Assembly: GCA_018303845.1 (NCBI GenBank)
Contig: JAGVXH010000002.1
Span: 27,532-91,531, forward strand
DNA from: Candidatus Pacearchaeota archaeon
GTDB taxonomy: Archaea > Nanobdellota > Nanobdellia > Pacearchaeales > GW2011-AR1
DNA: 64,000 bases
Direction: 5' to 3'
Shown: positions 1,223 through 56,799 of the stretch, one piece after another
How positions within the stretch are numbered: position 1 is the first letter of the stretch
Layout of the letters: each line of letters opens with the position of its first letter
Position numbers and translations under genes: made by a program
Notes under the pieces: generated by a model
Told to the model about the DNA's origin: nothing
Database searches by the model: none
What the model saw: the letters and a program-made list of their open reading frames with translations, nothing else

Positions 1223-2050
1223 ATGAAAAAAATCCCCCAAGACATAGTAGGCAACATCGCAATCCTAAAATTTCCAAGAACAACTCTTTGGATAATAAAA
1301 AAATTAAAAGCAATGTCTTTCCTAAAATCACATCCACATGTAACAACAGTAGTTGAAAAAATAGAAAAATTTTCTGGGGAGCTCAGAATTCCAACAACAA
1401 AATATCTAGCTGGAGAAAAAACATACACAGCCATCTACAAGGAAAACGATTGCACATTCAAATTCAACATCAATACAACTTACTTCTCCCCAAGACTGTC
1501 CAATGAAAGAAAAGTTATAGCAGATGAAGTTGGAAAACTCGTCCCCGAACAACCAAACAACCAGACTACCAAACAACCAGTTAAAATGTGCAACATCCTA
1601 GTCATGTTCGCAGGAATTGCCCCTTATCCAATCACAATAGCAAAATGCTTGCTAAAAGCTAATCGCCAAAAACTAAAGGCCAATTTCCACATCTACTCAA
1701 ATGAATTAAACCCAGAAGCAAATAAGTCAGCAAAAGAAAACATAATCCTAAACAAACTACAAAAAGAAATAACCCTCATCCCAGGAGACGCCAATAAAAT
1801 AAAATCCAAAAAAAAGTTCGACATTATCCTAATGCCAAGACCAAACCTAGAAGACACCTTCCTAAAATCAGCCTTAAAACTTTCGAAATCCGGAACAACA
1901 ATCTTCTATCACGGCTTCGGAACAGAAGAATCAGTCCTAAAAGAAATTAAAAAAGACGCTAAAGGAAAAATAGAAAAAATCAAAATCAGAAAAGCCGGAG
2001 ATATCGGACCCTACATTTTCCGTTGGCAAGCCCAATTCAAAGTAAAATAA
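1223..2050 (+). CDS. Trm5/Tyw2-family (Met-10+ like) tRNA methyltransferase
   Basis: It has the DIVGNIAIL N-terminal motif, FSPRLSNER, and a VMFAGIAPY SAM-binding segment characteristic of archaeal Trm5/Taw2 class I MTases. Confidence 0.65.
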   Translation: MKKIPQDIVGNIAILKFPRTTLWIIKKLKAMSFLKSHPHVTTVVEKIEKFSGELRIPTTKYLAGEKTYTAIYKENDCTFKFNINTTYFSPRLSNERKVIADEVGKLVPEQPNNQTTKQPVKMCNILVMFAGIAPYPITIAKCLLKANRQKLKANFHIYSNELNPEANKSAKENIILNKLQKEITLIPGDANKIKSKKKFDIILMPRPNLEDTFLKSALKLSKSGTTIFYHGFGTEESVLKEIKKDAKGKIEKIKIRKAGDIGPYIFRWQAQFKVK

Positions 2051-6096: not shown

Positions 6097-6801
6097 TTAC
6101 CAAATTCTAATACTAATCCGCTCGTTACTAACTTCCCCATTGCTCTTTAAAACCTTCACGACATAATCCTGAGCCAAAACATTGACGACATCAGGAATAT
6201 CATTACTGGGCTTCATCTCAACCTCACTCATCCCCTCAGGAACAATCGCAAAATCAAAAATATCAGCAACTCCCAAATCTCGCTTCAACCCGCTATAATC
6301 AGTATCATACCTGACCTTCATCGCCTGCAACTTAGAATAAGAAACAACCTCCAACTCAACAACCCCGCCCAATTCAAAATCAGTCAAATGCCCACACGTC
6401 GCAACTATCCCATCCGTAAACTCAGGAGAAATTGCAACCCTAAAAAAACTATCATCCTTTTTCAAATTCAACTCTCCTTCAACAAGATTAGAGTCAATAC
6501 TAGCTCCCCCAAGTCTAGTCACTAAACTACTCTCATCAGTAATAGCATATTTGAAAAGTTCACTGGGCAATTTAATATAAAAACAAGCCTTATCTCCAGT
6601 ATAATTAGTCTTCACAAAAACACTAGACAACTCAGTATTAACCTCATCACTAAATGAATCATAAACCCCCTCAAGCGCAGATTTCGGAAGTGACGAATCT
6701 TTCCATGGACTCAAAAACATAAACAGAAAAAATACAAATCCAATAAAAAACACAAATCCAATTATCATTTCAAAATGCCCCGAACCCTTCTTCCCTCTCA
6801 T
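6097..6801 (-). CDS. Pilin-like / pilus assembly protein with class-III-like signal
   Basis: N-terminus is KKGSGHFEMIIGFVFFIGFVFF, a charged-Gly cleavage context plus a hydrophobic helix, within the pilus locus. Confidence 0.4.
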   Translation of the reverse strand: MRGKKGSGHFEMIIGFVFFIGFVFFLFMFLSPWKDSSLPKSALEGVYDSFSDEVNTELSSVFVKTNYTGDKACFYIKLPSELFKYAITDESSLVTRLGGASIDSNLVEGELNLKKDDSFFRVAISPEFTDGIVATCGHLTDFELGGVVELEVVSYSKLQAMKVRYDTDYSGLKRDLGVADIFDFAIVPEGMSEVEMKPSNDIPDVVNVLAQDYVVKVLKSNGEVSNERISIRIW

Positions 6802-6842
6802 GTCAACAAAATACTTTTCTCATTTATATAACTATTCCCATT

Positions 6843-7670
6843 TTAACCAAACAATACCCGAGCCCCCATAGTAATCAAAAGCGTCACCGTGAGCAAAATA
6901 AACGAATGCCGAATCCCAGCCCTAATTGTCCCCTCCGAAATCTTCCCAATCACCAGTCCAGCAAAAAATGACTGCACTAACAACATCACAAAAAGTGGCA
7001 TAGAAAATTCCTCAGGATTCATCTGACTTATGCTCACGCTTAAACCTTCTCCAGTCTGCAAGTCCGAAACCAAGGGCAAAATCTTAAACTCCATAACAAG
7101 CATAATAATAATAAATACAAAAAAAATCATATAACCTTGAGTCACCAGATTCGAAACCGAAGCCTGTCTCTCCTTTCTCAAAGTCTCAACCTGAGTAACA
7201 GAACTCGCAACTGATTCCAAAATCATTTCAATATTTCCACCAGCCCGTTCAGCCTCACTAATCAAACCAACCGCCCTAGAAACAACTGGGCTATTCGTAT
7301 CCTTCGAAAAAGTAATCAAAGCATTAGTCAAAGTAATCCCAATCGTCAATTGATTCGCCAACTTAACAATATGAAAACTAAGTGTCCCATAATCTCTGCT
7401 CCTTAAATTAATAATACTCTTACTAATCGGAGTCCCCGACCGAACCATCTCAACAAGATCCCTAGTAAACTCCAAAAATTTCTCTTCCTTCTCACGCTGT
7501 CGAGCCTGCCCAAGCAAAAAACTAAGCATAAATGGAATAACCATAACCAAAAGAGAAATAACAAGTAAAAGATTCAACAAATCCCCAGAAAAAATCCCAA
7601 ACGAAGCGCCAGCCACAATAATCCCCGCTCCAATCCCCAGCCAATGCATCAAATCAAGCTTCATCCTCAC
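6843..7670 (-). CDS. TadC/FlaJ-like type II secretion system F-domain membrane protein (pilus platform protein, second half)
   Basis: Polytopic membrane protein with one T2SSF-like domain. Its start overlaps the stop of the upstream gene (ATGA). Confidence 0.55.
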   Translation of the reverse strand: MRMKLDLMHWLGIGAGIIVAGASFGIFSGDLLNLLLVISLLVMVIPFMLSFLLGQARQREKEEKFLEFTRDLVEMVRSGTPISKSIINLRSRDYGTLSFHIVKLANQLTIGITLTNALITFSKDTNSPVVSRAVGLISEAERAGGNIEMILESVASSVTQVETLRKERQASVSNLVTQGYMIFFVFIIIMLVMEFKILPLVSDLQTGEGLSVSISQMNPEEFSMPLFVMLLVQSFFAGLVIGKISEGTIRAGIRHSFILLTVTLLITMGARVLFG

Positions 7671-14754: not shown

Positions 14755-15047
14755 ACAACTATCTATTTCAAATCTTTATAAAATAATCGCAACCAAATTT
14801 TTCACAACCAATGGTAACCAAAAGCAAACCAATCCCATCATATAAAAATCATGCACGATTAAATTTTTAAATATCTACCACAAACCCGTACGAAAACCCC
14901 ATAAATTTTAATTAAAAAATATTATAACATAAACTCTCCAAACACATTTTTATTTTAATTAGACAATTTCGTGGCATAAAAAATTTCGCCGTGTGCAAAA
15001 GCACATAAGAAATTTTTTATCAAGAAATTGACAATTAAAATAAAAAT

Positions 15048-15305
15048 GTAGGCGAGCAAGAGCTCAAATCCACATAACAGAGGAAGACACTCATCCTCAG
15101 GTCTGCTACCCCCTAAGCACCTAAACCTTAACTTAGGGCTGCTGGAATTCCTCCCCCTGACCCAATTCATCAAAGCAAGATCAAAGAGGACAAACCTTCA
15201 ACGTCAAAATGTCAACATGTCAAACTTCATATCACTTACTTGCCTTGCGGTCCGTCATAAAGCCCATTTACGAACAGCGTGGGGCTAGCACGCCAACCTG
15301 CCTAC
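15048..15305 (-). ncRNA. Candidate signal recognition particle (7S/SRP) RNA
   Basis: The minus-strand transcript contains GGUCAGG..GGAA..AGCAGCC..AAGG, matching the conserved helix-8 (domain IV) primary motif of SRP RNAs. Its 5' GUAGGC and 3' GCCUAC pair as a terminal helix. GC content is locally elevated. A TTTTAAAGG box lies about 25 bp upstream. Confidence 0.5.
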
Positions 15306-15357
15306 AAAAAACAAAAGGTAAAAACCTTTAAAAGAGTTGTCATTCTCTTCCCTACAT

Positions 15358-15438
15358 GCCCACATCGCATATCGGTATTGCAGCGGATTGCTAATCCGCG
15401 CCCTCCGGGGCCGGCAGGTTCGACTCCTGCTGTGGGCG
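15358..15438 (+). tRNA. tRNA-Ser (anticodon GCU), type II with long variable arm
   Basis: Manual fold: acceptor GCCCACA/UGUGGGC, anticodon stem GCGGA/UCCGC with loop UUGCUAA, T-arm GCAGG-UUCGACU-CCUGC. CCA is not encoded. Confidence 0.75.
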
Positions 15439-15508
15439 TTCATTATCGAAACTGACGGCTTGACGGCTGGTTTAAAAAAAAATAAAGTTTTTCTTTAGGA
15501 ATCTTTGA

Positions 15509-15555
15509 TTCCGTGTCCGAGTGTCTCTGACACGAAGGCGACTCCTACCGTAGGC
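15509..15555 (+). repeat. tRNA-associated element: conserved motif TTCCGTGTCCGAGTGTCTCTGACACGAAGG fused to a 17-bp copy of the tRNA-Ser 3' end (from the T-loop)
   Basis: cgactcctaccgtaggc after the motif matches the tRNA-Ser 3' end cgactcctgctgtgggc, which lies 70 bp upstream. The same motif family is found at the tRNA-Leu and tRNA-Met loci. Confidence 0.55.
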
Positions 15556-15843
15556 AGTCTAACAAAAATGCAATGTAATTGTAAACAACATTGTCACCGA
15601 CGCTGTTTGTAATCCCTATAAGATTACAAGAAAAACTTATAACTATAAACACCATCTAATATCATTCGATTTATCAGCTTTGGCTTCGGTCAATTCAACC
15701 TAATCGAATGTTCGGCTTCGGTCGAATGGAAGAGAGGTGATGCATTAGAATCAATACTCTTCCATTTTACAATTACATTCAAAATAACAATATTTTCTCT
15801 TCTTCACCTAAATCCTTATAAACAAAATAGAATATCTCGCCAT

Positions 15844-21935: not shown

Positions 21936-23324
21936 ATGAGTACCGAACAACCAAACCACCGAACAACCAAACCACCCACCAAAAAAAACGGATTTTTTTT
22001 GGTCGGAACCGGCATGACAAAAAATTCCCTAACAGCTGAAAGTCTCGAGGCCCTAAAAAAATCCGACAAAATCTACCTAGAAAACTACACTGTAAACTTC
22101 CCCTACAAAATAGAAGACCTAGAAAAAGAAATAAACAAACATCTAAATTCTAATTCCTACAATCTAATCTCTCTTCCAAGAGGAAGTGTCGAAGACGAAT
22201 CAATCCTCCAAGAAGCAAAAACTCAAAAAGTGGCTCTCCTAGTTTACGGAGATTCATTATCAGCAACAACCCACATGCAACTAATCCTAGAATGCAAAAA
22301 ACAAAGTATACCTTACCAAATCTTCCACAATGCAAGTATACTAACAACAGTCGCCGAGACTGGACTCTCCCTCTACAAATTCGGGAAAACAACCTCAATG
22401 CCAAACTGGGCAGAACACACCAACAAACCAACCTCCTTCATAACCTACATAAAACAAAACCTCTCAATCGACGCCCACACCCTAATCCTAACCGACATTG
22501 GACTAGAAATTGAAAACGCAATCAATCAACTAAAAGAAGCATCAGAAAAAGAATCCCTAAAACTCCCAGAAAAAATAATTACAATTTCAAATGCGGGAAC
22601 TGAAAACCAAAAAATTTTCTACGACACTCCAGAAAACCTTAGCAACAAAAATATAGAAATGCCATTTTGCATAATCATACCAACAAAACTTCATTTTCTA
22701 GAAGAGGAAACATTGGAAAAAATTAAAATGATAATTCCGCATTATACATCATATAAAAAGGGTATCATGACGAAATTCGATCTTGTTTTTGAGGAAATTA
22801 GTAAGATTACCAAAAATGCAGCGGATAAAACTGAATATGGTCATTCACAATCCGTTTGGCAGTGGGTCTTAAAACTCAAACCAGACGCAGACATTGCATT
22901 GCAAATCGCCGCCTTGGGTCACGACATTGATAGAAGTTTTGAAGACTATCGGAAGATGAAGGCAAGATATGCGACTTATGATGAATACAAAAAAGCACAT
23001 GCTTTACTTTCTGCCAAGATAACATGCGATATTCTAATAAAACACAATTTTGACAAAGCAACGATAGATAAAGTTAAACATTTGATTGAAAATCATGAAA
23101 TTGGTGGTGAAGGCGATGTCGAGACTTTAACGGAAGCAGATAGCATGACATTCTTCAACAACTTACGGCATTATCGAGACACACATACTGAAAAAGAGAC
23201 AATCGACAAAATCAAATTTATGTATAAACGACTGTCTGCTAAAGCCAAAAAGTTAGTTAATCAAATCAAATTTAAAGACCAAGAATTATCTAATCTTGTG
23301 GAAGAATCAATTTCTGAATTATAG
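21936..23324 (+). CDS. dph5: Diphthine synthase (Dph5/DphB) fused to a C-terminal HD-domain phosphohydrolase-like module
   Basis: Residues about 20-265 match DphB (LVGTG, YGDSLSATTH, ETGLSLYKFG). Residues about 290-462 carry H...HD (YGHSQSV ... AALGHDIDR) in the same uninterrupted frame. Confidence 0.7.
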   Translation: MSTEQPNHRTTKPPTKKNGFFLVGTGMTKNSLTAESLEALKKSDKIYLENYTVNFPYKIEDLEKEINKHLNSNSYNLISLPRGSVEDESILQEAKTQKVALLVYGDSLSATTHMQLILECKKQSIPYQIFHNASILTTVAETGLSLYKFGKTTSMPNWAEHTNKPTSFITYIKQNLSIDAHTLILTDIGLEIENAINQLKEASEKESLKLPEKIITISNAGTENQKIFYDTPENLSNKNIEMPFCIIIPTKLHFLEEETLEKIKMIIPHYTSYKKGIMTKFDLVFEEISKITKNAADKTEYGHSQSVWQWVLKLKPDADIALQIAALGHDIDRSFEDYRKMKARYATYDEYKKAHALLSAKITCDILIKHNFDKATIDKVKHLIENHEIGGEGDVETLTEADSMTFFNNLRHYRDTHTEKETIDKIKFMYKRLSAKAKKLVNQIKFKDQELSNLVEESISEL

Positions 23325-23534: not shown

Positions 23535-26417
23535 ATGCAAGAAAAATCCCAAATCCAAGAAACCGAAGAACAAATCTCAAAATTCTGGAAAGCAAACAAA
23601 ACATTCGAAGCCTCACTAAAAAAAACAGAAAAAGGCAAACCCTACATCTTCTACGACGGCCCACCCTTTGCAACAGGCCTTCCTCACTACGGCCACCTTC
23701 TGGCTTCAACCCTAAAAGACGTATACCCAAGATTTCACACAATGCTCGGACGTTACGTAAAAAGAACATGGGGCTGGGACTGCCACGGACTTCCCATTGA
23801 ATCAATCGCAGAAAAAAACCTCGGCATAAAATCTAAAGACGAAATAGAAAAAATGGGCGTCAAAAAATTCAACGACCATTGTAGACAACAAGTTTTAACC
23901 TACGACTCCGACTGGCGAACCTACATAGAAAAAATCGGAAGATGGGTAGACTGGCAAGGAGGCTACAAGACAATGGATAACTCCTACATAGAATCCGTCT
24001 GGTGGGCATTCAAACAATTATACGAAAAAGGCTACCTTTACGAAGGCGAAAAAATCCTACTCTACTGCCCAAGATGCGCAACCCCTCTAGCAAAATCAGA
24101 AATCGCAATGGACAATTCCTACAAAACAGTAAAAGAACTAACACTAACAGCAAAATTCAAACTCCAAACCCCCGAACCACCAAACCCCCGAACCACCAAT
24201 GGAAAAGGTGAAACCTTTTTCATAGCATGGACAACAACCCCATGGACTCTTCCAAGCAACCTGGCCTTAACAGTAAACCCAAACCTAATCTACACCTTCG
24301 TCAAAGATAAAAAAGACAACAACACCTACGTCCTAGCAAAAGAACTAATTCCCTCATTCTACAAAGACACAAATGAATACGAAATAACAAAAGAAATGAA
24401 AGGTAGCAAATTAGAAGGATTACAATACGAACCACTATTTCCCTATTTCAAAAATAACCCAAACTCATTCAAAATCCTAACCGCCGACTTCGTAACCGCA
24501 GAGGCAGGAACAGGAATCGTCCACACAGCCCCAGCATTCGGAGAAGATGACAACGCCATCTGCAGAAAATACAACATCCCAATGGTCCAACCAGTTACAG
24601 AAACAGGACACTTTACAAAAGAAGTAACAGACTACAAGGATCAACTAGTCTACGACGCAAGCCAACAAATAGTAATCGACTTAAAAACACAAGGGAAGGC
24701 AATCCAATCAAAAAAAATGGAACACGAATATCCATTCTGCTACAGATGCGACACGAAACTAATGTATCGAGCACTCCCAGCATGGTTTGTCGACATCCAA
24801 AAAATGAAAAACAGATTCCTAGAACTAAATCTCCAAATCAACTGGTTCCCATCTCACCTAAAAGAAGGACAAATGCAACACAACATCTCAACTGCGCCAG
24901 ACTGGAACATCACAAGAAACAGATACTGGGCAACCGCCATCCCAATTTGGAAATCCCCGTCAGGAAAAATAAAAGTCCTAGGCTCAATTGAAGAATTAAA
25001 ACAATATGCAATAAACCTACCAGAAGGGCAAATAGATTTACACAAAGATTCTCTAGACCCAATCAAATTAAAAATAGACGGAGAAGAATACACAAGAATC
25101 CCAGAAGTCCTAGACTGCTGGTTCGAATCAGGTGCAATGACCTTCGCGCAATTCCACTATCCATTCGAAAACAAAAAATTCTTCGACAAAAACTTCCCAG
25201 CACAATTCGTCACAGAATACATTGGGCAAACTAGGGCTTGGTTCTATTACATGATGGCACTTTCAACTATCCTCTTCGATAAAATCCCTTTCGAAAACGT
25301 CCTAACAACCGGAATCATCCTAGCCGAAGACGGAAAGAAAATGTCAAAATCCCTAAAAAACTATCCAGACCCACTAACAATGATAAACAAATACGGGGCC
25401 GACACATTCAGATTCTATATGTTAGGTTCTCCCCTAATGACAGCCGAAAATTTCAACTTCTCAGAATCCGGGCTAGAAGAAGTCTACAAAAAAATAACAG
25501 TCCTCTTATACAACGTAACAAGATTTTACAAAGATTACGCAACAGAAGACGACAAAAACTTCGAAACCTCAACAAACATATTAGACAACTGGATAATCTC
25601 AAGAACCGAAGAACTAAACAAAGTCGTCCAAGAAAACCTAGAGATATACAACTCCATCAAAGCCTGCGCCTTCGCAAAAAAATACATCGAAGACCTTTCA
25701 ACTTGGTATATCAGAAACTCTAGGAACCGATTCAACGAAGACGACTCCCAAGCAAGAAAAACAACATACTACGTCCTAAACAAACTCTCCAAAATCTTAT
25801 CACCACTAATCCCCTTCGTAACAGAATCAATCTTCCAAGACATAAATAACTCCCAAGATTCCGTCCACCTCCAAGACTATCCCAAAGCAAACGAATCCCT
25901 AATAAATAAAGAGCTAGAAGAAGAAATGGAAACCACAAGGAAAATAGTCTCAACACTATTACAACAAAGAGACAAAGCCGCAATAGGAATAAAATGGCCA
26001 CTAGCAAAAGCAACAGTTTCAACCCCAATACGACCAAAAGAAGAACTATCCAATATCATAAAAGAAGAACTTAACATAAAAGAAATAGAATACATCCCAC
26101 TAGCAGCTAACAGCCAAGAGCTAACAGCCAAATTAGACACAACCCAGACTCCAGAACTAGAATCCGAAGGCTACGCCAGAGAACTATCCAGAATAATCCA
26201 AGCGTCACGAAAAGAAAACAATCTAATAAAATCCGACACAATAGAACTAGAAATAATCTCCAATTTCAACGACATTATAAATTCCCAACTAGAATTCATA
26301 AAAACAAGAGTCGGAGCGACGACAATATCTTTAAAAAAAACCAGTAAAAATTTTGATTACTCAAAAGTCAGTAAAATAAAAAACAAAGAATTTGAAATAA
26401 AATTCAATAAGTTATAA
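23535..26417 (+). CDS. ileS: Isoleucyl-tRNA synthetase
   Basis: It has the HYGH and KMSKS class I motifs and is 960 aa with IleS-type editing and anticodon-binding regions. Confidence 0.9.
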   Translation: MQEKSQIQETEEQISKFWKANKTFEASLKKTEKGKPYIFYDGPPFATGLPHYGHLLASTLKDVYPRFHTMLGRYVKRTWGWDCHGLPIESIAEKNLGIKSKDEIEKMGVKKFNDHCRQQVLTYDSDWRTYIEKIGRWVDWQGGYKTMDNSYIESVWWAFKQLYEKGYLYEGEKILLYCPRCATPLAKSEIAMDNSYKTVKELTLTAKFKLQTPEPPNPRTTNGKGETFFIAWTTTPWTLPSNLALTVNPNLIYTFVKDKKDNNTYVLAKELIPSFYKDTNEYEITKEMKGSKLEGLQYEPLFPYFKNNPNSFKILTADFVTAEAGTGIVHTAPAFGEDDNAICRKYNIPMVQPVTETGHFTKEVTDYKDQLVYDASQQIVIDLKTQGKAIQSKKMEHEYPFCYRCDTKLMYRALPAWFVDIQKMKNRFLELNLQINWFPSHLKEGQMQHNISTAPDWNITRNRYWATAIPIWKSPSGKIKVLGSIEELKQYAINLPEGQIDLHKDSLDPIKLKIDGEEYTRIPEVLDCWFESGAMTFAQFHYPFENKKFFDKNFPAQFVTEYIGQTRAWFYYMMALSTILFDKIPFENVLTTGIILAEDGKKMSKSLKNYPDPLTMINKYGADTFRFYMLGSPLMTAENFNFSESGLEEVYKKITVLLYNVTRFYKDYATEDDKNFETSTNILDNWIISRTEELNKVVQENLEIYNSIKACAFAKKYIEDLSTWYIRNSRNRFNEDDSQARKTTYYVLNKLSKILSPLIPFVTESIFQDINNSQDSVHLQDYPKANESLINKELEEEMETTRKIVSTLLQQRDKAAIGIKWPLAKATVSTPIRPKEELSNIIKEELNIKEIEYIPLAANSQELTAKLDTTQTPELESEGYARELSRIIQASRKENNLIKSDTIELEIISNFNDIINSQLEFIKTRVGATTISLKKTSKNFDYSKVSKIKNKEFEIKFNKL

Positions 26418-33047: not shown

Positions 33048-33941
33048 CTAACCCTTATCTCCCCCAGCCAACCGCGCCCTCAAGACCGGCAACTCCCCAT
33101 TAATCTCAGTCAATCTCTCACCATACTTCTTCATCCTAATATCATAAACTAACCCAGAAAGACTTCTCTTCTTAAACCGCTCAACCTGAACCTTCCTAAT
33201 CAAATCCTTCAAAACAGTACGCTCTGTCTCCATCTTCAAAATCTTATTCTTCAAGATTCTTTTCACAATATTCTTTCTAAGAAAAAATACCATAAAACCA
33301 ACTAAAACAAAACCAACTAAAACAAAAATCCAATGCTCCTGAAAAAAATTTTTAGCCCCACGTTGAACCCCCGCAAAAACAGTTCTATCAGCCCTATCTT
33401 TTTCAACACTAACTCGATATACTTTAATCAAATCTTCAGTCTCAGAAAATCTCTCCTCATAAAAAGCAGCCTTAGCATCTTCCAATATCTGAACATTTCC
33501 AGGAGAAACAATTCCAGGGAGGGGCTCTTCTATAATAATCTTATCCCACAATAAAAACGCTAAATCCCGACGAGCAACAATATCATAATAATAAACCATC
33601 ACGTCATCATACTCAAGATTTTGCCACTTAATCAACCTCAAAGCCTCAGTCGCTTCAGCCTTATCCTCACGAGAAAGACTACCATTCCTCAAAATTTCGG
33701 CATAACTAACCTGCTCAAAAACCCGATTCATCTCTAGTAAAGAATCTTCAACATAAGAAACAGAAAAATTATGCGCCTTCATTTCCGAAATAATATCATC
33801 AACATTTTCAAAAGCCACCATCACAGAATCCAAAGTAATATTTTCTTCTTTTTCCAAAATATCACCAGTCACCAAATTCATAACAATAAATAAATAAATA
33901 AATAGAATAGGCACACCAAAAACTTTAATTTTATTTTTCAT
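33048..33941 (-). CDS. Hypothetical membrane protein
   Basis: There is an N-terminal TM, a soluble domain and a C-terminal TM. The internal start MKNKIKVF avoids a long overlap with the upstream giant gene. Confidence 0.4.
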   Translation of the reverse strand: MKNKIKVFGVPILFIYLFIVMNLVTGDILEKEENITLDSVMVAFENVDDIISEMKAHNFSVSYVEDSLLEMNRVFEQVSYAEILRNGSLSREDKAEATEALRLIKWQNLEYDDVMVYYYDIVARRDLAFLLWDKIIIEEPLPGIVSPGNVQILEDAKAAFYEERFSETEDLIKVYRVSVEKDRADRTVFAGVQRGAKNFFQEHWIFVLVGFVLVGFMVFFLRKNIVKRILKNKILKMETERTVLKDLIRKVQVERFKKRSLSGLVYDIRMKKYGERLTEINGELPVLRARLAGGDKG

Positions 33942-36900
33942 TTTTCCCGCCCTTAATTTTAATCCACTTCCCATGAACATTCCTACCCAAAAAGCCCTTC
34001 CGTCCAACAAAAACTTTCTTAGCAAAACCCTTATCTATAATCTTGCTTTCCCCCTTATCCTCCTTATTCCCCGACGCCACAGACTTAGAAGAAATCTTGT
34101 TCACCCTCTCCTTCATCAGCAACACCGTCATCCTTTCTCCTTCAATCTCGGCCAACCTCTCATTCAAAATCCTAAACTGCAACTCATAACTATCCGTACC
34201 AATCTTCTTATTCTTATAATAATCATTCTGCAATTTCTTAACTTCCGCTTCCGCCTGAATCCTTTCACTATCAAGTTCAGAAATAATCTCCCTAGGCTTC
34301 AATATTCCAATTCTCTGATTCCTCAAAGTCAATCGAACTCCCCTTAAATTCGCCAACCTTTTCTCGTACTGATTCATAATCCGATGATATTCTCCAGAAG
34401 AAATCACACCCGTAAAATATTGTTGCTGAGACGCAGTCATTAATTTCCTAATATTCTCCTCTTCCCTATTAATATCAATAATCCTAGAACTCGCGACGCT
34501 CTTCTGATATTTACGATACCCAAAAATTCCACCCAAGAAAATAAAAAAGACACCCAAGAAAATAAACGGCCAATACAAAAATAAAAACAAAGTAAAATTT
34601 CCCTTTCGATTAAACAACAACAAATTCTGAGCCTCTTTTATTCTCTCATTAGCCAAAGCGTAATCTCCCCTTTCAAAAGCAACCTTAGCTAAATTCAAAA
34701 TATCCTCAACAGACTTATCGCCAAAAATAGCCCAACCAGTAAATATAGAATTCATATTGGCCCGAATACTATCATCAGCATAAGCATCCTTTACAGCGTT
34801 TCCAGTAATTACACCCATCTTCACCGGGTTCCTAAGCGATTCAAAAACTCCATCAATCAAACCTTGAGTTTCAAAAGCCAAATCTCTCAAATCCAAAATA
34901 CTTTCACTTAATTCCAATGCCTCCGCATTTTTTCTTTCTCCCAATTTCAACTTAGCCTTAGCAAAAAAATCCTCAACCTGAATCGTATTAAAACCCGCAA
35001 GCTTCATCTCAAGAATAGCCTTCTCCGCCGCTAGCAAAGAAAGACTCGTATCTTCAAAACTAGCCTCCTGAATAATCAACAAAATATTCTGAGTCTCTCT
35101 ATAACTTCTAGCAGCACCACCCACAACCAATTGACCACTAATCACCGCAACCAAAGTATGTTCCTCCATTACCTCCTTATATGCCGGAACCCGAACATTA
35201 ATATTAAACTTCCCAGATTCTCTATAGCCTATCGGGCCAACAACCAAAGGAGAAATTTTAATATACTTAGACATAAAACCATTCAAACTCAAAGTCAAAT
35301 TTTCCAAAGTAGAATTAATATATTTATTATCCACAGTTATCTCAAAACTATCTTCCCCCCCACGAACAATTTCAATAACTTTAGAATACACAACGGATTC
35401 TCCACTTGCCCCACCCCCGCCGCCTCCACTTCCGCCTCCACCAGTGATAGAAACCACAGTCGAGGCCACAATCGTCCCAGCGCCAATAGTAACCGCCTTA
35501 CTAGCATTAGCGGAATCAGCATTACTAGAATTAGCTACAGCAACAATAGAAACAGAGCTGTCCGTAGCCGACGAAGAAACAGAAACAACCAAACTATTTG
35601 AACCACTTCCGCCAATAGGCAAAGCCCCAAGACTTCTCGTCAAACTTCCACTACTAACACTAAACACCGAAGGCAAAGTCCAACTTAAATAAACATCCGT
35701 CGCATCCGCAGTACCAAGATTAGTAACCGTCGCAACCAAATTCACACTAGAATCCCCAGCCGTCACGCTCCCACTATAAGTACCAATATCAACAACCAAA
35801 TAAGGTCCAACAGCCGTCTGAAGATTGAGTCGCCTCTCAAAAATTTCCACTCCAGCCGCAGAAACAACAGTCACATTATAACTATACAAACCAGAAATCA
35901 AACCAGTAGTATTCACATCAATAGTTATATTTGCAAAACTCCCAGAACCGACAGAATAATTTACACTTAAATTTCCAGAATAATTTACACTCAATCGAGA
36001 ACCAATAGAAGAAGAACTAAGGCTAACATTAAAATTCAAATCTACATCTCCAGTATTATTTAAAATAACATTTCCTAAAGAATTGTTAGAAGCCCTATCA
36101 GCATAAACCAAAGAAACAATAGAACCAATCACAGCACTAACATTATGAGAAGTATCATTCCCAACAACAATCACAGTATTTGCAGAAATATTTCTATTAC
36201 CAGCAAAATCCGTAGCATTAATCTTAAACGTCCAGTTATCTGCCTCAGGAATAAAAGAACCGTTGTAAACAATCACCGAAGACGAACCTACAACCAAATC
36301 AGAATTATTATTCATACTAACAAAACTCCAATTCGTCTCCGTAGAATTCTTGTACATCAAAACAACCGAAGAAATATTATAATCTTCCGTAATACTAGAA
36401 TTCACATTCACAACAACAACAGGGTCCAAGCCATCCGTTGAGTTAGGAAAATAAGTTATATTATTAATAACAGGGGCAGTGTCATCAAAAATAACAACAT
36501 CATCAATACTACTATCATTAACTCTCCCAGCTAAATCATAAACATAAAGCCTAGCACTAAAACCTGGCGGAGAATGATTTCCAGAACCAATTGTATAACT
36601 AGTGGAATTCAAAGTCCCACTCAAATCAATATCAGAACTATTTACCCAAGTCCCACTAGCATTATAACTAACAATAACATAATCCAATCCAACAGCATCA
36701 CTAACATTCACAACACAAACAACATTAACAGAATCATTCGAATCACTGCATGAAAAATTATTCACAGCCGGTACAGTCAAATCGACATAAACAATCACCG
36801 AAGAATTCCCCTGATTACCAGAACTATCATTTGCATAAAATATTACATTATGCTGCCCCTCAACAAAATTAACGGTAGCATTCCAAGAGGTAGAAGAAGT

Positions 36901-39900
36901 ATTCCCCAAATTAGTAAGCGCACCAGAGTTATTCCTATATCCTGCCCAAATAACATTCTCACTCATAGTCGCATTCAAAAGAACACTCCCGTCCAAATCA
37001 TAAGAATTATTAGAAGGACTCCAAACAGTTATCACGGGGGCAGTACTATCCGCAGGAACAGCATCAACAGTAAACGAAACAGAGCTCACTCCGATATTCC
37101 CAGAAGAGTCCACAGCATAAAAAATAACAGTCTTGCTCTCGTCCGCTCCGGTCGCAACAACGCTATTCCAAGCAGATCCAGAACCAGACAAACTAACATT
37201 AGTAGCCCCACCATCCAAAGAATAATTCGCAGCAGTAGCATTCTCATTTAAACTAATACTAAATAAAATATTCGCAGTACCATAAGTCTGATTCAATGGA
37301 CTATTAATACTAACAACCGGAGCAGTCACATCATTAACCGTAAAAGTTATGGAACTAGAATTAGAATTTCCAGCAACATCACTAGAATAGAAATTACAAA
37401 CATATCCACCCTTAGCAACGCTACTCATCGTATAGTTCATCCATCCAGTTCCAGTCAAACTAATTGTATGATTCACAAAACTTCCCGTAACATTCTCCCC
37501 AATCTTAACATTAGTCAAACCAAAAGCATCCGCGACATAAGCACTACAAACCACATTCTGACTTTCATTCGCAGGATTCGGAGTTGCACCAACATTCGTA
37601 TAAACAGGAGAAACGCCATCAACATAAAACACAATCGTCTTACTTCCCTGATTACTCGAAGTATCATTAGCATAAACAACCAAAGTATTAGTAGATTCAT
37701 CACTCAAAGTAAGCATAGCATTCCAATCAACCATAGTCGTATTTGTCAAAGCAACAACAGAAGAGCCATTCAAAGTATACCCAGCCCAAGTCAAATTTTC
37801 ATTAGCAGTCACATTCAAAATAAGACTAGTCGAAGTGTAATAAGTCGCATTAGAAATCGTATCTATCGTTATCACCGGAGGAACAGTATCGGGGGCAGCA
37901 GTATTAACAGAAAAATAAATCACCGAAGAAACTCCAATATTCCCAGAAGAATCATTAGAATAAAACACAATATTATATGCCCCATCTGATAAATTAGTCA
38001 ATGTACTATTCCATGCCACAAGAGAAGTATTTCCCATACTAACATTCGCAGACCCATTCAAAGAATACCATGCCAAACTAGCATTCTCAGAAACACTAAT
38101 CGAAGCAGAAACATTAGCAACATTATACGTAAGATTACTAGGACTATTAACCGTTATTACCGGAACAGTCACATCATTAACATTAAAATTAACAGAACTA
38201 ACATTAGCGTTCCCGGCAAGATCACTAGCATAAAATTTGCAAGTATACCCACCAAAAGTTCCAAGCTGTGCACCAGAAATCAAATAACTAGCTTCACCAC
38301 TAATTCCAGAAAAAGAAATACTATGATTCTCAAAAGTCCCACTACTATTCTCCCCGATTATAACACCAGTTATATTATACGTATCAGTCCAACTAATAGA
38401 ACAATTAACATCCTGCGAAACATTAGCAGGACTAGGGAAAGCCTGAGCCAAACTATATCTCGGAGCAAGACTATCAGCATAAAACACCGAAGTCTTATTG
38501 TTCAAATTATTAGAAGTGTCATTAGCATAAACAACTAATGTATACGTAGTCTCCTGCGTCAAACTAGTCAAAGTAATATTCCAACTCCGAAGACTACTAT
38601 TCCCCAAATCCGAAACAGAACCACCATTCAAAGAATATCCAGCCCAACGCAAATCTTCATCCGCGGTAATATTAATCAAAGTATTCGCAGGATTCTTATA
38701 ACTTAGATTAGCAGGAGAAACAATCGTAATAGAAGGAGGCGTTGTATCAACCGGAGTCGTATCAATCACAAAAGAATTCCCAGTCAAAGTCCCAATATTC
38801 CCATAGCTATCATTCGCCCAAAAAGTCAAAGAATAAGTCCCATCCGCAATACTCGAATTTGTATGAGTATAACTAAGCAAAGTAGTATTCGCCATAGAAA
38901 CATTAGTCGCCCCACCATTCAAAGAATACCAAGCACGAGATAAAGCCTCGCTAACAGAAACACTAATCGTAACAGAATCCTGAGTTATCGTAGAACCATT
39001 AGTCGGAGAAACCAAAGTAATAATCGGAGCTGTATAATCAGTCGTATAGCTCCCGGTCAAACTATTGTTAGTTGCCGCTTCTCCAAGCTGATCAAAAACA
39101 TAAGCATACCAAGTATGAGTAGAAGAATCTAGTTCCGAAACAAGAACACAAGACAAATTAGCGCCACCAGAATCGCTACAATATTCACCCCCAAAACATC
39201 CACTTGAATTCGCCCCAGAAGAATTACAGACAAAAAGAGAAATCAATTGACTAGCATCAGAATCATAAGACACACTAGAAATATTAACGGCAACTCCACC
39301 TTTAATAATCGTAGCATTATCACTAGCACTCATAAAAGTAGGAAGTTGATTTATATTAATCGTTTTATTTTGAACCTCCTGAATGTTACCTGCATCATCA
39401 CTTGAATTATATCTCAAATAATTTATCCCACGGTTTACAGAAGTAAAAATAATTTGCCCACCATTATCAACACTAACCGAAGGCACACAAGTTCCAACAG
39501 TATCAGTACAATATAGAGTAGTAGGATCCGAATCTACATTATCTGCTTCCGTAATCGTAACAGTATAATTTGGAGCTTGAATAGTAGAAACCGAATTATC
39601 CGAAGTTGTTGGAGCAGTATAATCCAAAAAAAACTGCACATCTAAATTTTGACTAGAATTTTGTCCATTAGTATAATTATCTTGACAAGAAACATACCGC
39701 GCATAAAATCCCTGAGAAGCTACATTATTCACAGAACAATTCGCCCGTATTCCAGATACGGTGCAATCATTAGACATAGAAGAATAGGAAACATCACTTG
39801 AACTCCATCGACAGCTCATATTCGCCTCGCCAGAAACAACGATGTTCGTCACCCCATCATTTACTATATCAAAATAACTAGCAGCACTATCTCCAGCAAC

Positions 39901-40827
39901 ACTAACTATCGAAGTCGTTGGAGGAGTAGAATCTGTAATGTAAGTCACATTTGGAACAACCGAAGAATAAGCTGCCCCATCATAAACTCTACAATACTCT
40001 GTATAATTCGTGCTCGTAACAGCCGTAGCAAAAGTGCAAGACAAACTATATGGATAAGTCCCACTAGTAGTCCCACCAGTGCAATCTGTATTCGCAGAAG
40101 TAGGTAAATTAGTGGAATCACAAAATAATTGTAAAGTATTCAAGTCACTATCATTTACTCCATTACGCGTAGTATTCGCGTAGATAGTTATCGTATCCCC
40201 TCCCTTAATCACGGAATGACTTGCACTAATATTCGCAATCACAGGCTCAGCATTTGCAGAATAAGTCACATTAAAATACATCACATCCCAAGTCCCAGTC
40301 TCAGTCGTAGCAGGACCAGTTCCAATTCTTGACATTTCAGATTTCGCAAGCCCCCTAGTTCCACTCGCTCCAAAAAAATTCCCACAACTCCAAGTTTCCA
40401 GACTAGTTACATTTGAACAAGTTATAGAAGCCGGCTCACTAATTGCAGGACAAGTCGTAGTCACAACACTATAACTAGCTCCTCCATTAGCATCGACAGA
40501 AACATCACAATCCTGAGGCGTAGCAGTATTAGTTCTCCACCACTTGTAACAAACAAAAACCTGAGAAACCCCACCACAACTAAGCATGGAGCTATTTACC
40601 GACTGTATTCTTACACCCCCATAAGTACTTTTCAAATAAGTATGAGTCTCAAGAGAAGCATCGTCATTAATCAAAAAAGAACCCGTAGTATTATCACAAA
40701 CTCCCGCAAAACTTCCCTTAATTGCATTATCTTCCGCAGAACAAGTACTCACAACATTCGTGAACACAGCAGCACTCCCAAAAGTTCCAATAAAAACTCC
40801 AATCAACAAAACAAAAATTAACCTCAT
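33931..40827 (-). CDS. Giant (2298 aa) type-I membrane surface protein/adhesin with tandem Ig-like repeats, Gly-rich linker, C-terminal TM and cytoplasmic coiled-coil tail
   Basis: It has a signal peptide, more than 100 N-x-S/T sequons, and about 90-aa repeats (xP.IT..SP.N.SY...WAGYSLNG..) alternating with about 110-aa P.PAN.SQ.V.C modules in an A-A-B pattern repeated three times. There is a GGGGSGGGGGGASG linker, then TM FLFLYWPFIFLGVFFIFLGGIFGY, then a tail of about 180 aa. Confidence 0.8.
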   Translation of the reverse strand: MRLIFVLLIGVFIGTFGSAAVFTNVVSTCSAEDNAIKGSFAGVCDNTTGSFLINDDASLETHTYLKSTYGGVRIQSVNSSMLSCGGVSQVFVCYKWWRTNTATPQDCDVSVDANGGASYSVVTTTCPAISEPASITCSNVTSLETWSCGNFFGASGTRGLAKSEMSRIGTGPATTETGTWDVMYFNVTYSANAEPVIANISASHSVIKGGDTITIYANTTRNGVNDSDLNTLQLFCDSTNLPTSANTDCTGGTTSGTYPYSLSCTFATAVTSTNYTEYCRVYDGAAYSSVVPNVTYITDSTPPTTSIVSVAGDSAASYFDIVNDGVTNIVVSGEANMSCRWSSSDVSYSSMSNDCTVSGIRANCSVNNVASQGFYARYVSCQDNYTNGQNSSQNLDVQFFLDYTAPTTSDNSVSTIQAPNYTVTITEADNVDSDPTTLYCTDTVGTCVPSVSVDNGGQIIFTSVNRGINYLRYNSSDDAGNIQEVQNKTININQLPTFMSASDNATIIKGGVAVNISSVSYDSDASQLISLFVCNSSGANSSGCFGGEYCSDSGGANLSCVLVSELDSSTHTWYAYVFDQLGEAATNNSLTGSYTTDYTAPIITLVSPTNGSTITQDSVTISVSVSEALSRAWYSLNGGATNVSMANTTLLSYTHTNSSIADGTYSLTFWANDSYGNIGTLTGNSFVIDTTPVDTTPPSITIVSPANLSYKNPANTLINITADEDLRWAGYSLNGGSVSDLGNSSLRSWNITLTSLTQETTYTLVVYANDTSNNLNNKTSVFYADSLAPRYSLAQAFPSPANVSQDVNCSISWTDTYNITGVIIGENSSGTFENHSISFSGISGEASYLISGAQLGTFGGYTCKFYASDLAGNANVSSVNFNVNDVTVPVITVNSPSNLTYNVANVSASISVSENASLAWYSLNGSANVSMGNTSLVAWNSTLTNLSDGAYNIVFYSNDSSGNIGVSSVIYFSVNTAAPDTVPPVITIDTISNATYYTSTSLILNVTANENLTWAGYTLNGSSVVALTNTTMVDWNAMLTLSDESTNTLVVYANDTSSNQGSKTIVFYVDGVSPVYTNVGATPNPANESQNVVCSAYVADAFGLTNVKIGENVTGSFVNHTISLTGTGWMNYTMSSVAKGGYVCNFYSSDVAGNSNSSSITFTVNDVTAPVVSINSPLNQTYGTANILFSISLNENATAANYSLDGGATNVSLSGSGSAWNSVVATGADESKTVIFYAVDSSGNIGVSSVSFTVDAVPADSTAPVITVWSPSNNSYDLDGSVLLNATMSENVIWAGYRNNSGALTNLGNTSSTSWNATVNFVEGQHNVIFYANDSSGNQGNSSVIVYVDLTVPAVNNFSCSDSNDSVNVVCVVNVSDAVGLDYVIVSYNASGTWVNSSDIDLSGTLNSTSYTIGSGNHSPPGFSARLYVYDLAGRVNDSSIDDVVIFDDTAPVINNITYFPNSTDGLDPVVVVNVNSSITEDYNISSVVLMYKNSTETNWSFVSMNNNSDLVVGSSSVIVYNGSFIPEADNWTFKINATDFAGNRNISANTVIVVGNDTSHNVSAVIGSIVSLVYADRASNNSLGNVILNNTGDVDLNFNVSLSSSSIGSRLSVNYSGNLSVNYSVGSGSFANITIDVNTTGLISGLYSYNVTVVSAAGVEIFERRLNLQTAVGPYLVVDIGTYSGSVTAGDSSVNLVATVTNLGTADATDVYLSWTLPSVFSVSSGSLTRSLGALPIGGSGSNSLVVSVSSSATDSSVSIVAVANSSNADSANASKAVTIGAGTIVASTVVSITGGGGSGGGGGGASGESVVYSKVIEIVRGGEDSFEITVDNKYINSTLENLTLSLNGFMSKYIKISPLVVGPIGYRESGKFNINVRVPAYKEVMEEHTLVAVISGQLVVGGAARSYRETQNILLIIQEASFEDTSLSLLAAEKAILEMKLAGFNTIQVEDFFAKAKLKLGERKNAEALELSESILDLRDLAFETQGLIDGVFESLRNPVKMGVITGNAVKDAYADDSIRANMNSIFTGWAIFGDKSVEDILNLAKVAFERGDYALANERIKEAQNLLLFNRKGNFTLFLFLYWPFIFLGVFFIFLGGIFGYRKYQKSVASSRIIDINREEENIRKLMTASQQQYFTGVISSGEYHRIMNQYEKRLANLRGVRLTLRNQRIGILKPREIISELDSERIQAEAEVKKLQNDYYKNKKIGTDSYELQFRILNERLAEIEGERMTVLLMKERVNKISSKSVASGNKEDKGESKIIDKGFAKKVFVGRKGFLGRNVHGKWIKIKGGKNEK

Positions 40828-54786: not shown

Positions 54787-54869
54787 GTGGGGATGCCGGA
54801 GTGGCCAAACGGGCTGGCTTTAAGCGCCAGTAGCATCTGCTTACGGGGGTTCGAATCCTCCTCCCCACA
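54787..54869 (+). tRNA. tRNA-Leu (anticodon UAA), type II
   Basis: Manual fold: acceptor GUGGGGA/UCCCCAC, anticodon stem CUGGC/GCCAG with loop UUUAAGC, long variable arm, T-arm GGGGG-UUCGAAU-CCUCC. Confidence 0.8.
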
Positions 54870-54990
54870 TTTATACAATTCAATTTATTGAATTGTATTT
54901 ATTTTTGGAAGACGATTCTAATGCTCGAACTTTACGGGGGTTTGCGAAAAATTACGAAGTAACTTTTTCGCAGAAAAATTCAAAGAATTT

Positions 54991-55307: not shown

Positions 55308-55349
55308 AAAACAAAAATGAATCTCCACTTTATATATTAGAGGTATCAA

Positions 55350-56779: not shown

Positions 56780-56799
56780 TTATTATAAAAAAGTCGAAC

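Follow-up and report, generated by a model that had tools for sequence, protein, structure and literature searches.

The block of a tRNA gene that runs from the T-loop to the 3′ end reportedly serves the T-loop-type attachment sites of tyrosine integrases, a use that Williams is said to have described in Nucleic Acids Research in 2002. In IS608-type elements, the hairpins at the two ends are alike. Casposons have inverted repeats at their termini, code for Cas1 and a polymerase, and make target duplications of 14-15 bp. Insertion of casposons at tRNA 3′ ends with target duplication is described in PMC5137440, and for Caldiarchaeum a mobile-element model of tRNA disruption exists (PMC3293823). 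The open-access literature yielded related ideas only (these two, together with partial tRNAs at sites of integration and the remnants of tycheposons), and no account of ~70-nt structured inserts in tRNA loops of DPANN archaea. Here we describe such an insert, element A, at a tRNA-Ser locus and at the tRNA loci of related genomes. Element A is specific to tRNA genes of Pacearchaeota-like archaea.

The tRNA-Ser locus

The window, the 64-kb stretch of DNA analysed here, is chromosomal DNA of an uncultivated archaeon, and its gene content includes aminoacyl-tRNA synthetases, pyruvate:ferredoxin oxidoreductase, acetyl-CoA synthetase and archaeal pilus genes. An identical copy of the protein encoded beside the locus is assigned by NCBI to Candidatus Pacearchaeota. 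Its tRNA-Ser(GCU) gene, that of the window, was called alike by ARAGORN and Infernal, at 15357/8-15438/9 (+). A first-pass annotation had placed an element-associated motif 70 bp after this gene, and our coordinates agree: the 30-mer TTCCGTGTCCGAGTGTCTCTGACACGAAGG occupies 15509-15538, 70 nt past the tRNA-Ser end, and is directly followed at 15539-15556 by CGACTCCTACCGTAGGC(A). The complete order 3′ of the gene is a 6-nt spacer (15439-15444), ATCGAAAC, CGGCTGGTT, a 66-nt core and CGACTCCTACCGTAGGCA. The features of the locus are as follows.

15046-15307, minus strand: archaeal SRP RNA (Rfam scan)
15358-15438, plus strand: tRNA-Ser(GCU), the intact resident gene, whose 3′ end is repeated downstream (ARAGORN; Rfam tRNA model, 50 bits, E 1e-7)
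15445-15452, plus strand: ATCGAAAC, inverted T-loop/T-stem junction, the reverse complement of GTTTCGAT (compare GTTCGAC of the tRNA; sequence)
15464-15472, plus strand: CGGCTGGTT, decayed T-stem 5′ strand plus T54 and T55 of tRNA-Ser (gene: CGGCAGGTT), the left flank of the insertion (sequence)
15473-15538, plus strand: element A core, 66 nt (covariance model match 15469-15545, 73 bits, E 1.3e-15; alignment, covariation and fold)
15473-15497, plus strand: hairpin 1 of the core, degenerate
15498-15512, plus strand: hairpin 2 of the core, GGAATC-ttt-GATTCC
15513-15521, plus strand: invariant GTGTCCGAG of the core
15522-15532, plus strand: hairpin 3 of the core, TGTC-tct-GACA
15533-15538, plus strand: invariant CGAAGG of the core
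15539-15556, plus strand: diverged direct repeat of tRNA-Ser from C56 to the discriminator, CGACTCCTACCGTAGGCA against CGACTCCTGCTGTGGGCG, 14/18; the right flank

The arrangement is not an assembly artefact, because the locus is identical in independent assemblies (ENA ERZ27254807 and JGI 3300002146), with zero base differences between them. The tRNA-derived part begins in the T-loop, as had been noted, and its start is C56, the position found in every same-orientation copy. Its divergence had been overestimated at 5 of 17 positions: the 3′ 17-mer of tRNA-Ser and the downstream 17-mer match at 14 of 17, differing at three (G>A, T>C and G>A), and with the discriminator counted the match is 14/18. 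A similarity no better than chance, named beforehand as the refuting condition, did not survive a 17-mer scan of the window. Chance was ruled out because, on both strands (128 kb), the downstream repeat is the sole other site matching at least 13 of 17 positions, and because an independent covariance model, described below, returns the site at E 1e-15. Scoring with Infernal called the upstream gene and did not score the downstream segment as a tRNA; against the tRNA family (RF00005), cmscan at E≤1 reported just the four intact tRNAs of the window and nothing at 15469-15556. The 18-nt tail is unable to pair with the 5′ acceptor strand of tRNA-Ser and is therefore a relic.

Structure of element A and its copies in the window

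In the aligned copies, element A has the order hairpin 1, hairpin 2, GTGTCCGAG, hairpin 3 and CGAAGG within a core of 66-80 nt, in which GTGTCCGAG and CGAAGG are invariant and single-stranded. We built a covariance model (R2) from nine copies on other contigs, with no window sequences, and searched the window with filters off. Exactly three matches were obtained, at tRNA-Leu (78 bits, E 7e-17), tRNA-Ser (73 bits, E 1.3e-15) and tRNA-Met (67 bits, E 3e-14); the next-best match had an E value of 0.22. The Ser site is thus a further copy of a tRNA-associated element, as first proposed. It shows the three hairpins, both motifs and the T-loop halves as flanks that define the family, and hairpin 1 alone among these parts is degenerate. 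The unit is bounded not as the 30-mer but as the 66-80-nt three-hairpin core.

The element motif recurs at the tRNA-Leu and tRNA-Met loci of the window in two different settings. At tRNA-Leu(UAA), a strong hairpin and a T-run separate the gene from its unit. At tRNA-Met, element A lies within a complete tandem pseudo-tRNA-Met, in the orientation opposite to the tRNA. The features of these loci, together with a copy of a second core described below, are as follows.

54787-54869, plus strand: tRNA-Leu(UAA), intact, the second element-bearing locus (ARAGORN; Rfam scan)
54931-55040, plus strand: the whole Leu unit (sequence; model match, 78 bits, E 7e-17)
54931-54942, plus strand: left flank of the Leu unit, TTTACGGGGGTT, with an 11-nt match to the tRNA
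54943-55022, plus strand: element A core of the Leu unit, 80 nt
55023-55040, plus strand: repeat of the Leu unit, CGAATCCTCCTCTCTACA, 16/18
55463-55529, plus strand: core B copy with the conserved end ...AAATTTTAGTGCAAAGTTTGAGTA, between ~35-nt repeats of tRNA-like fragments (pattern search, 1 match, 0 expected)
56477-56552, minus strand: initiator-type tRNA-Met, intact (ARAGORN; Rfam scan)
56602-56784, minus strand: the whole tandem pseudo-tRNA-Met (direct repeat D14, 58 nt at 91%; model match, 67 bits, E 3e-14; ortholog L115)
56683-56784, minus strand: duplicated promoter and positions 1-~58 of the pseudo-tRNA-Met
56617-56682, reading on the plus strand: element A core in the T-loop, in reverse orientation to the tRNA
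56602-56616, minus strand: degenerate 3′ end of the pseudo-tRNA-Met, AATCCAGTCCCCTTG

In the orthologous Met locus (L115), the 5′ 63 nt of the pseudo-copy are still identical to the gene, and ARAGORN annotates one pseudo-Met of L115 as a gene.

Hairpins 1 and 3 were supported by RNAalifold and by the counting of pairs. In the pairing test, 97.5% of cells were paired, against 80% in shuffles (none of 500 reached the observed value), and 35 double-change cells were observed where 11.8 were expected. Slid controls gave 44-60% paired. Hairpin 2 covaries as well, reading GGAATC/GATTCC in the Ser copy, GAAAAATTC/GAATTTTTC in the Leu copy and GAAATTC/GAATTTC in the Met copy; since GGAATC pairs with GATTCC, the TCC-for-TTC mismatch in the Ser copy is accounted for. 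The element A hairpins are under selection and are maintained by compensatory changes. Single-sequence folds returned the same three-hairpin shape in each A copy, and the sense fold was better than the antisense fold in 10 of 12 copies (sums of −206 and −182 kcal/mol, respectively).

The 6-bp hairpin CGTGTC/GACACG reported in the first-pass annotation is present in the Ser copy, and the family-wide form of this stem is TGTC-tct-GACA closed by a G-C pair, with the CGTG/CACG extension in some copies only. The loop of hairpin 1 in element A shares a GCGAAGC/ACGAAGT-type sequence with the hairpin loop of core B. The segment GTGTCCGAGTG has what we take to be a resemblance to the D-arm of a class II tRNA; no consistent tRNA-like fold could be made from it, and we treat the likeness as a resemblance only.

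Insertion site and distribution among relatives

A pattern scan of JGI metagenomes recovered ten low-GC archaeal contigs with an A unit beside tRNA genes. The same kind of scan of GTDB representative genomes gave 77 matches, 76 of which were high-GC bacterial coincidences within coding sequence and one of which was real (L043, an archaeal MAG). On their different contigs, the A copies adjoin genes for tRNA-Ser, Leu(UAA), Leu(CAA), Met, Arg(UCG), Ile(GAU), Gln(UUG) and Arg(UCU), so that at least six tRNA species in several genomes have the family as a neighbour. Partial tRNA copies are common in this material, being found next to at least 12 of the 22 tRNA genes in ~190 kb of related sequence.

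Without exception, element A occupies a loop in a second copy, partial or pseudo, of the tRNA next to it. In same-orientation copies, T55 and C56 of a truncated second copy are cleanly separated by the inserted core; because the core is preceded by a remnant of the T-stem 5′ strand and by TT, it is placed within the T-loop. The intact tRNA lies 60-110 nt upstream in these copies, and since the insertion sits in the second, truncated copy, the adjoining intact tRNA stays functional. Direction is the same as that of the tRNA in 10 of 13 A copies, those of Met, L115 and L122 being antisense. All 13 A copies, and all units of the cores B, C and F introduced below, measure ~75-150 nt and have the same internal order.

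Of 12 copies, 11 have GG(N)TT at the end of the left flank, whereas L132 has GCAT. Its length ranges from 5 to 45 nt (11 nt at the Leu loci, 10-14 nt in L113 and ~45 nt in L129), and in L113, the Leu loci and L129 it is specific to the tRNA concerned. Upstream of the left flank, an inverted piece of the T-arm occurs regularly in same-orientation units (L112, L111, L113, L118, L122 and L135), for example as AATCGAACCC in L112, as a 14-nt palindrome arm in L113 and as a whole inverted T-arm in L135. The same piece is also present 3′ of tRNA-Ser in L130, which is without element A. On the right side, same-orientation copies continue with tRNA sequence from C56 to the tRNA end. This flanking repeat is perfect over 17-19 nt in L112 (18/18), L113 (19/19), L118 (19/19) and L135 (18/18, around core F), and decayed at the Ser (14/18) and Leu (16/18) loci of the window. 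The perfect repeats could reflect gene conversion with the adjacent tRNA instead of recent insertion.

Two copies, in L132 and L129, lie in the D-loop (positions 13/14), and there CGAAGG is directly followed by another hairpin-1 module. For these D-loop copies and for the complete tandem pseudo-tRNA of the Met locus, recombination at an attachment site seems a poorer description than plain insertion into a tRNA copy that was redundant. Behind the same spacer and left flank at the orthologous tRNA-Leu(UAA) site, element A is present in the window, L128 and L121, and core B in L115. The tRNA-Met of L128 has no element.

The Ser site in orthologous loci

Five orthologous SRP-RNA/tRNA-Ser loci were collected via the neighbouring protein. 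L129 (neighbour protein 69% identical) has the same arrangement with two A cores, more decayed than that of the window; its second tRNA copy is much longer, covering approximately positions 11-55, of which 26-55 are identical to the tRNA. In L132 (64%), an intact A lies upstream, in a 5′ duplicate. No recognizable A was found at the Ser site of L130 or L131 (60%), and L130 is without any insert. L135 (57%) has no A at this site; a 65-nt core, F, lies downstream with its perfect 18/18 repeat, and two tandem 54-nt units lie upstream of tRNA-Ser, each consisting of tRNA positions 1-15 and a 39-nt insert (E).

Judged from these comparisons, the Ser insertion in the window is old, as had been suggested from its divergence, because it is common to L129 and even more decayed there, and because L130 is without the insert and L135 without A. 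On the same footing, the tRNA-Ser locus is a recurrent target.

Other cores and tandem arrays

Cores B to F have the same architecture as A, and at least five of the cores that do so are unrelated or distantly related.

Core B, ~66 nt: window 55463-55529, L111, L118, L043 and L115
Core C, 31 nt: L122, in three identical tandem units
Core D: L122, in the anticodon loop of a pseudo-tRNA-Cys
Cores E and F: L135

Cores of different families occur side by side. L118 reads tRNA-A-repeat-B-repeat and L111 reads tRNA-B-repeat-A-repeat, so that each of A and B is trailed by its own tRNA-end repeat, and the three identical units of L122 are 75 nt each. The junctions differ between cores, A following T55 and B following G53, and among the pseudo-copies insertions are seen in T-, D- and anticodon loops. 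The repeats end 0-1 nt from the mature tRNA ends, spanning C56-73 in 3′ units and positions 1-13/15 in 5′ units. In the Met, Thr and Cys cases the duplication exceeds 100 nt and includes the promoter.

Origin of the units

We tentatively rank first an explanation in which element A is a miniature, integrase-less integrative unit at tRNA genes, mobilized in trans. It ranks first because T-loop-type attachment sites use the very block that is repeated here, from the T-loop to the end of the tRNA; a direct repeat of this extent, the mark of integrase-type attachment, was found around the insert. A mobile, non-autonomous DNA element is favoured because the units are small and non-coding, have a structure under selection, occupy many tRNA hosts, are present or absent at orthologous sites of different genomes, alternate between A and B at one such site, accrete in tandem and carry repeats that range from perfect to decayed. 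Genomes differ at shared sites: L130 has no insert, L135 has core F without A, and the tRNA-Met of L128 is free of the element.

Under this explanation, a recombinase encoded elsewhere, by a helper element or by the host, would recombine the unit at the T-arm, which is palindromic. The shared attachment sequence would extend from the T-loop to the tRNA 3′ end, and for that reason integration would regenerate the tRNA and leave a partial tRNA repeat on the far side. Tandem arrays would be the product of repeated integration events. The hairpins, with GTGTCCGAG and CGAAGG, may act as cis sites for the recombinase, probably read on one DNA strand. With the same tentative standing as the integrative reading, of which it forms a part, the Ser segment may be taken as an old, decaying copy of the small non-coding mobile DNA element A. 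It would be immobile now, because hairpin 1 is degenerate or lost, most of the left flank is gone and 4 of 18 repeat positions have changed.

The recombinase search covered 40 ORFs by Pfam (30 from the window and 10 from related loci) and the precomputed Pfam assignments of called genes in L108-L136. No tyrosine or serine recombinase gene was found inside or beside an element among the 40 ORFs and the gene tables of 12 related loci; likewise, the 64-kb window and ~130 kb of related loci show no gene for an integrase, a transposase or Cas1. A full-length parent element was not found. The attachment model does not predict a tRNA-derived left flank that abuts the core, nor the inverted T-arm piece upstream, and it leaves unexplained how one core family serves many tRNAs with differing 3′ ends. 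Because of these features, a single-strand transposon, a staggered-cut integrase and a functional RNA are kept alive as explanations.

Of these, a relic of a single-strand-DNA transposon appears unlikely, though it accounts for several features of the core. The unit would be an IS200/IS605-like miniature (PATE), moved by a Y1/HUH transposase reading subterminal hairpins, inserted 3′ of GGNTT in the hairpin loops of tRNA genes without target duplication, and surviving in redundant copies only. Hairpins at both ends, strand-biased folding, clean insertion of a core that is without terminal inverted repeats, the GG(N)TT that ends 11 of 12 left flanks, and insertions in the T-, D- and anticodon loops of pseudo-copies all fit, as does the placement of CGAAGG directly before a hairpin-1 module in L132 and L129, which is like a right-end/left-end junction. 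The GCGAAGC-type loops fit too: as DNA, this sequence forms a mini-hairpin of unusual stability, of a kind typical where DNA functions in single-stranded form (PMC13037366). However, neither a Y1 transposase nor TnpB was seen in any locus, the matches of the metagenome-scan motif being all miniature units; hairpins 1 and 3 are dissimilar; and the 66-80-nt core is below the size of known PATEs. Nor does this reading account for a right tRNA repeat that nearly always reaches position 73 beside a short left flank, for the inverted T-arm piece, or for the perfect repeats in tandem arrays. Another mechanism would be staggered-cut integration at a fixed spacing, by a casposase/Cas1-like or other transposase cutting in the T- or D-loop and at the tRNA end, after which gap repair would duplicate the terminal 13-19 nt and further rounds would yield CRISPR-array-like strings. 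Perfect repeats whose ends, on either side, deviate by 0-1 nt from those of the mature tRNA, the use of any tRNA with no need for a tRNA-specific element sequence, the repeat-insert-repeat periodicity of L118, L111, L122 and L135, and the precedent of casposons, which duplicate their target at tRNA 3′ ends (PMC5137440), speak for such a mechanism. We nevertheless consider it improbable: the units have no terminal inverted repeats and no locus has a Cas1 gene, the left flank and inverted T-arm would be inserted DNA and yet are tRNA-specific, the Met, Thr and Cys duplications exceed 100 nt and include the promoter, and the A and B junctions differ (T55 and G53).

The selected structure could instead belong to a functional small RNA, or to an RNA element acting in cis, whose transcription accompanies or directly follows that of the tRNA, with the tRNA-like tail serving processing or targeting and the copies multiplied by duplication. 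Covarying hairpins, invariant single-stranded motifs, several G-U pairs that favour the sense strand, the 10 of 13 copies that follow the tRNA direction, and the M2 part of the Ser copy, intact despite its decayed flanks, are consistent with an RNA. Yet the Met, L115 and L122 copies are antisense to their tRNA, the L129 copies are decaying, the same site is without insert in L130 and without A in L135, at least five unrelated or distant cores share the architecture, and a strong hairpin with a T-run stands between tRNA-Leu and its unit. A cmscan of the whole window at E≤1 found no Rfam family at the Ser, Leu or Met element sites, and inspection found no bulge-helix-bulge at the junctions, no box C/D, no K-turn and no hammerhead core. 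Together these points make a functional RNA a poor candidate, with little probability in our estimate. Ordinary scars of full-size integrated viruses or plasmids, that is, attL-attR remnants after deletion of the body, would explain a tRNA followed by a partial 3′ repeat, the classic integrase footprint; degenerate remnants and partial tRNAs are reported to gather at tRNA sites in other systems (tycheposons, 10.1101/2020.12.28.424599; Caldiarchaeum, PMC3293823). We regard scars as highly improbable, since separate deletion events would not arrive at the same order and a length of ~75-150 nt in all 13 A copies and every B, C and F unit, and since the covariation of the hairpins indicates selection on the unit itself. 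Databases of such elements gave no match: blastn against 50,697 phage records (GenBank) and 72,556 plasmid records (PLSDB) returned nothing, and the 30 matches of a pattern scan of IMG/VR were all coincidences in high-GC coding sequence.

Further readings were tried and rejected. The trailer of the Met 5′ fragment is complementary to the Ser and Leu leaders and at first resembled Nanoarchaeum-type split halves; a tRNA intron or split tRNA was rejected because the interrupted copies are pseudogenes, with degenerate fragments and intact tRNAs alongside, and because neither bulge-helix-bulge geometry fits the 55/56 junction. Checked by hand for two 3-nt bulges separated by a 4-bp helix, exon GGGG against intron CGAA pairs at 1 of 4 positions, and the mirrored AAGG against GATT at 2 of 4, which is not conserved. 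A MITE would have terminal inverted repeats and a short, fixed target duplication; here inverted repeats are absent, and the duplicated segment measures 13-19 nt or >100 nt and depends on the tRNA ends. For a casposon, the unit ends are not inverted repeats on inspection and no Cas1 domain was found in the scanned ORFs. A CRISPR array, with regular repeats of at least 23 nt and unique spacers, was set aside on the grounds that the repeats are 18-nt tRNA ends, the inserts recur across genomes and are identical within L122, and no cas genes were seen. A folded single-strand attachment site like that of CTX phage was discarded after the circularized unit, folded by hand, formed no T-arm mimic. 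An origin of the inverted piece by copy-DNA snap-back or P-nucleotides does not agree with an inverted arm that matches the uninterrupted T-arm and not the core junction.

Discussion

If the units are mobile, as the first-ranked integrative explanation holds, they would be among the smallest site-specific mobile DNAs known, hitting the most conserved hairpins of a genome while sparing the gene. Partial tRNA copies, carried by 12 or more of the 22 tRNA genes in the related sequence, have a major part in shaping the tRNA loci of these reduced DPANN genomes. It is likely that they also cause tRNAs to be mis-annotated, one pseudo-Met of L115 being an example, and they bear on how archaeal tRNA genes become interrupted or split and on how repeat-insert arrays arise at a fixed anchor. 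The value of the Ser copy itself is more modest: it is a fossil, useful for dating the family.

A bolder proposal, which we regard as doubtful, is that tRNA genes of Pacearchaeota and other DPANN archaea have been colonized by a new class of hairpin elements that are tiny (30-80 nt) and fall into several families, A-F. Their insertion would be the work of an enzyme that reads structure, recognizing the T-, D- and anticodon arms of tRNA genes, perhaps in single-stranded or R-loop DNA, and duplicating exactly the segment from the loop to the mature end. CRISPR-array-like strings would result, whether the chemistry of integration is new or a Cas1/HUH-type enzyme has been put to a new use.

Among known systems, the islands and prophages of T-loop tyrosine integrases and their integrase-less derivatives (cis-mobilizable elements and tycheposon remnants) resemble the A units in their intact tRNA, foreign DNA and direct repeat from the T-loop to the 3′ end, and in the tandem accretion of different elements at one tRNA, with older repeats more decayed. 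The A-type units differ in being ~75-150 nt long and gene-free, with no integrase nearby. Their core abuts a tRNA-derived left flank with an inverted T-arm piece ahead of it, and it serves many tRNA species; D-loop and anticodon-loop sites and 5′-end repeats also occur here. PATEs and REP-like hairpin elements resemble element A in their small size, in lacking both coding capacity and terminal inverted repeats, in their strand-specific subterminal hairpins and in clean insertion beside a short conserved flank (here GGNTT). In contrast to these, no Y1/TnpB partner was found for element A, its end hairpins are unlike, and it is confined to the loops of tRNA genes, a segment of which is duplicated.

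Casposons likewise target tRNA 3′ ends, and beyond the inserted casposon a duplicate of the tRNA 3′ segment is found; they are kilobases long (PMC5137440), whereas the A-type units are without inverted repeats or Cas1 and have a repeat of 18-19 nt from C56. The MITEs are also short, non-coding and multi-copy, with presence/absence polymorphism and trans-supplied function, but element A targets a structured loop of an RNA gene and not a short di- to octanucleotide. Finally, foreign sequence in tRNA loops, fragments beside intact genes and inserts common to different tRNAs are features that element A shares with archaeal non-canonical introns, with split tRNAs and with the model in which mobile elements disrupt tRNA genes (Sugahara et al. 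2012, PMC3293823). Unlike in those systems, the interrupted copies here are pseudogenes with broken acceptor or anticodon stems, and the functional tRNA is the uninterrupted neighbour.

tRNA fragments between tRNA-Leu and tRNA-Met

The segment at window 55430-55575, between tRNA-Leu and tRNA-Met, is a graveyard of tRNA fragments. It includes a copy of element B, a core family with the same architecture (an insert plus a repeat of the tRNA end) as element A, the three-hairpin core of 66-80 nt found inside a second, partial or pseudo tRNA copy.

Window 55463-55529, plus strand: element B, with ~35-nt direct repeats on both sides

These direct repeats are composed of tRNA-like pieces (GGGATTTCAAATCC...CATAGCGGG), and the same segment holds a fragment of the tRNA-Met 3' end as its reverse complement (TAGCGGGGGCAGGAT). 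At the related archaeal locus L128, tRNA-Leu and its element A are followed directly by tRNA-Met in the same direction, and then by RNase HII. Relative to L128, window 55030-57880 is ~2.8 kb longer, carries four minus-strand ORFs and has tRNA-Met inverted. The additional sequence and the inverted tRNA-Met suggest that DNA was inverted or inserted between two sites resembling a tRNA T-arm (T-stem and T-loop).

Tandem units and interrupted tRNAs in related loci

Related loci carry further units.

L122 1190-1490, minus strand: three identical tandem 75-nt units, then a reversed A core
L135 4640-4955, plus strand: tRNA-Ser with flanking units on both sides
L115 7384-7459, minus strand: pseudo-tRNA-Met interrupted by element A

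Each 75-nt unit of L122 consists of an inverted T-arm, CAGGTT, a 31-nt core including GCTTCGC and an 18-nt tRNA-Arg(UCU) end; the reversed A core that follows lies in a chimeric T-loop. Upstream of the tandem units, the anticodon loop of a pseudo-tRNA-Cys is interrupted by 68 nt of inserted sequence. In L135, two tandem 54-nt units, each made of tRNA positions 1-15 and a 39-nt insert, precede tRNA-Ser, and core F (65 nt, with an 18/18 repeat) follows it. The 3' part of core F, read in reverse (CCGAGCGAAGCGAAGG), is similar to the A motif. ARAGORN called the interrupted pseudo-tRNA-Met of L115 a second tRNA-Met gene, an example of how A-type units can inflate tRNA counts.

L115 also has a 2'-5' RNA ligase (LigT-like) gene (6325-6966, plus strand) between its tRNA-Leu/B unit and its tRNA-Met cluster; this position is probably coincidental.

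Genomic context

Strand asymmetry is very strong across the whole window, with a GC skew of -0.2 to -0.56 in most 2-kb bins, easing to -0.05 at 16-18 kb, where genes change to the plus strand. The skew follows the coding strand because coding strands are purine-rich.

Window 1545-1579, 21943-21993, 24156-24206 and 58603-58645: CCRAACMACCAAACCACC-type short repeats (family D1), close to the starts of several genes
Window 33931-40827, minus strand: 2298-aa ORF with internal repeats of ~850 nt (families D2, D4, D5, D10), probably encoding a giant surface protein

Small four-helix-bundle genes (23S_rRNA_IVP/Avd-like, PF05635) occur in four related loci.

L129 16234-16611 and 17536-17943
L132 17169-17537
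L118 2802-3164, putative
L121 2373-2732, putative

Those of L129 and L132, identified by precomputed Pfam hits, are inserted between the pilus T2SSF genes; those of L118 and L121 are assigned from N-terminal similarity only. The genes may be mobile, or they may have a link to diversity-generating retroelements.

Non-coding sequences around tRNA-Ser

A conserved non-coding stretch lies in the interval separating the Ser element from the next gene.

Window 15640-15775, plus strand
L129 8905-9045, minus strand
L130 7372-7470, minus strand
L135 4065-4250, minus strand

It contains repeated GRCYUCGGUY hairpins, which have UUCG tetraloops and show some compensatory changes. The stretch matched nothing in Rfam, and it may represent an undescribed leader or small RNA.

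tRNA-Ser also adjoins, in divergent orientation, an SRP RNA gene.

Window 15046-15307, minus strand: archaeal SRP (7S) RNA, shortened; 69 bits, under the Rfam gathering score of 96.5

The pairing is kept in L129, L130, L132 and L135, and linkage of 7S RNA with tRNA-Ser is known from Methanothermus fervidus.
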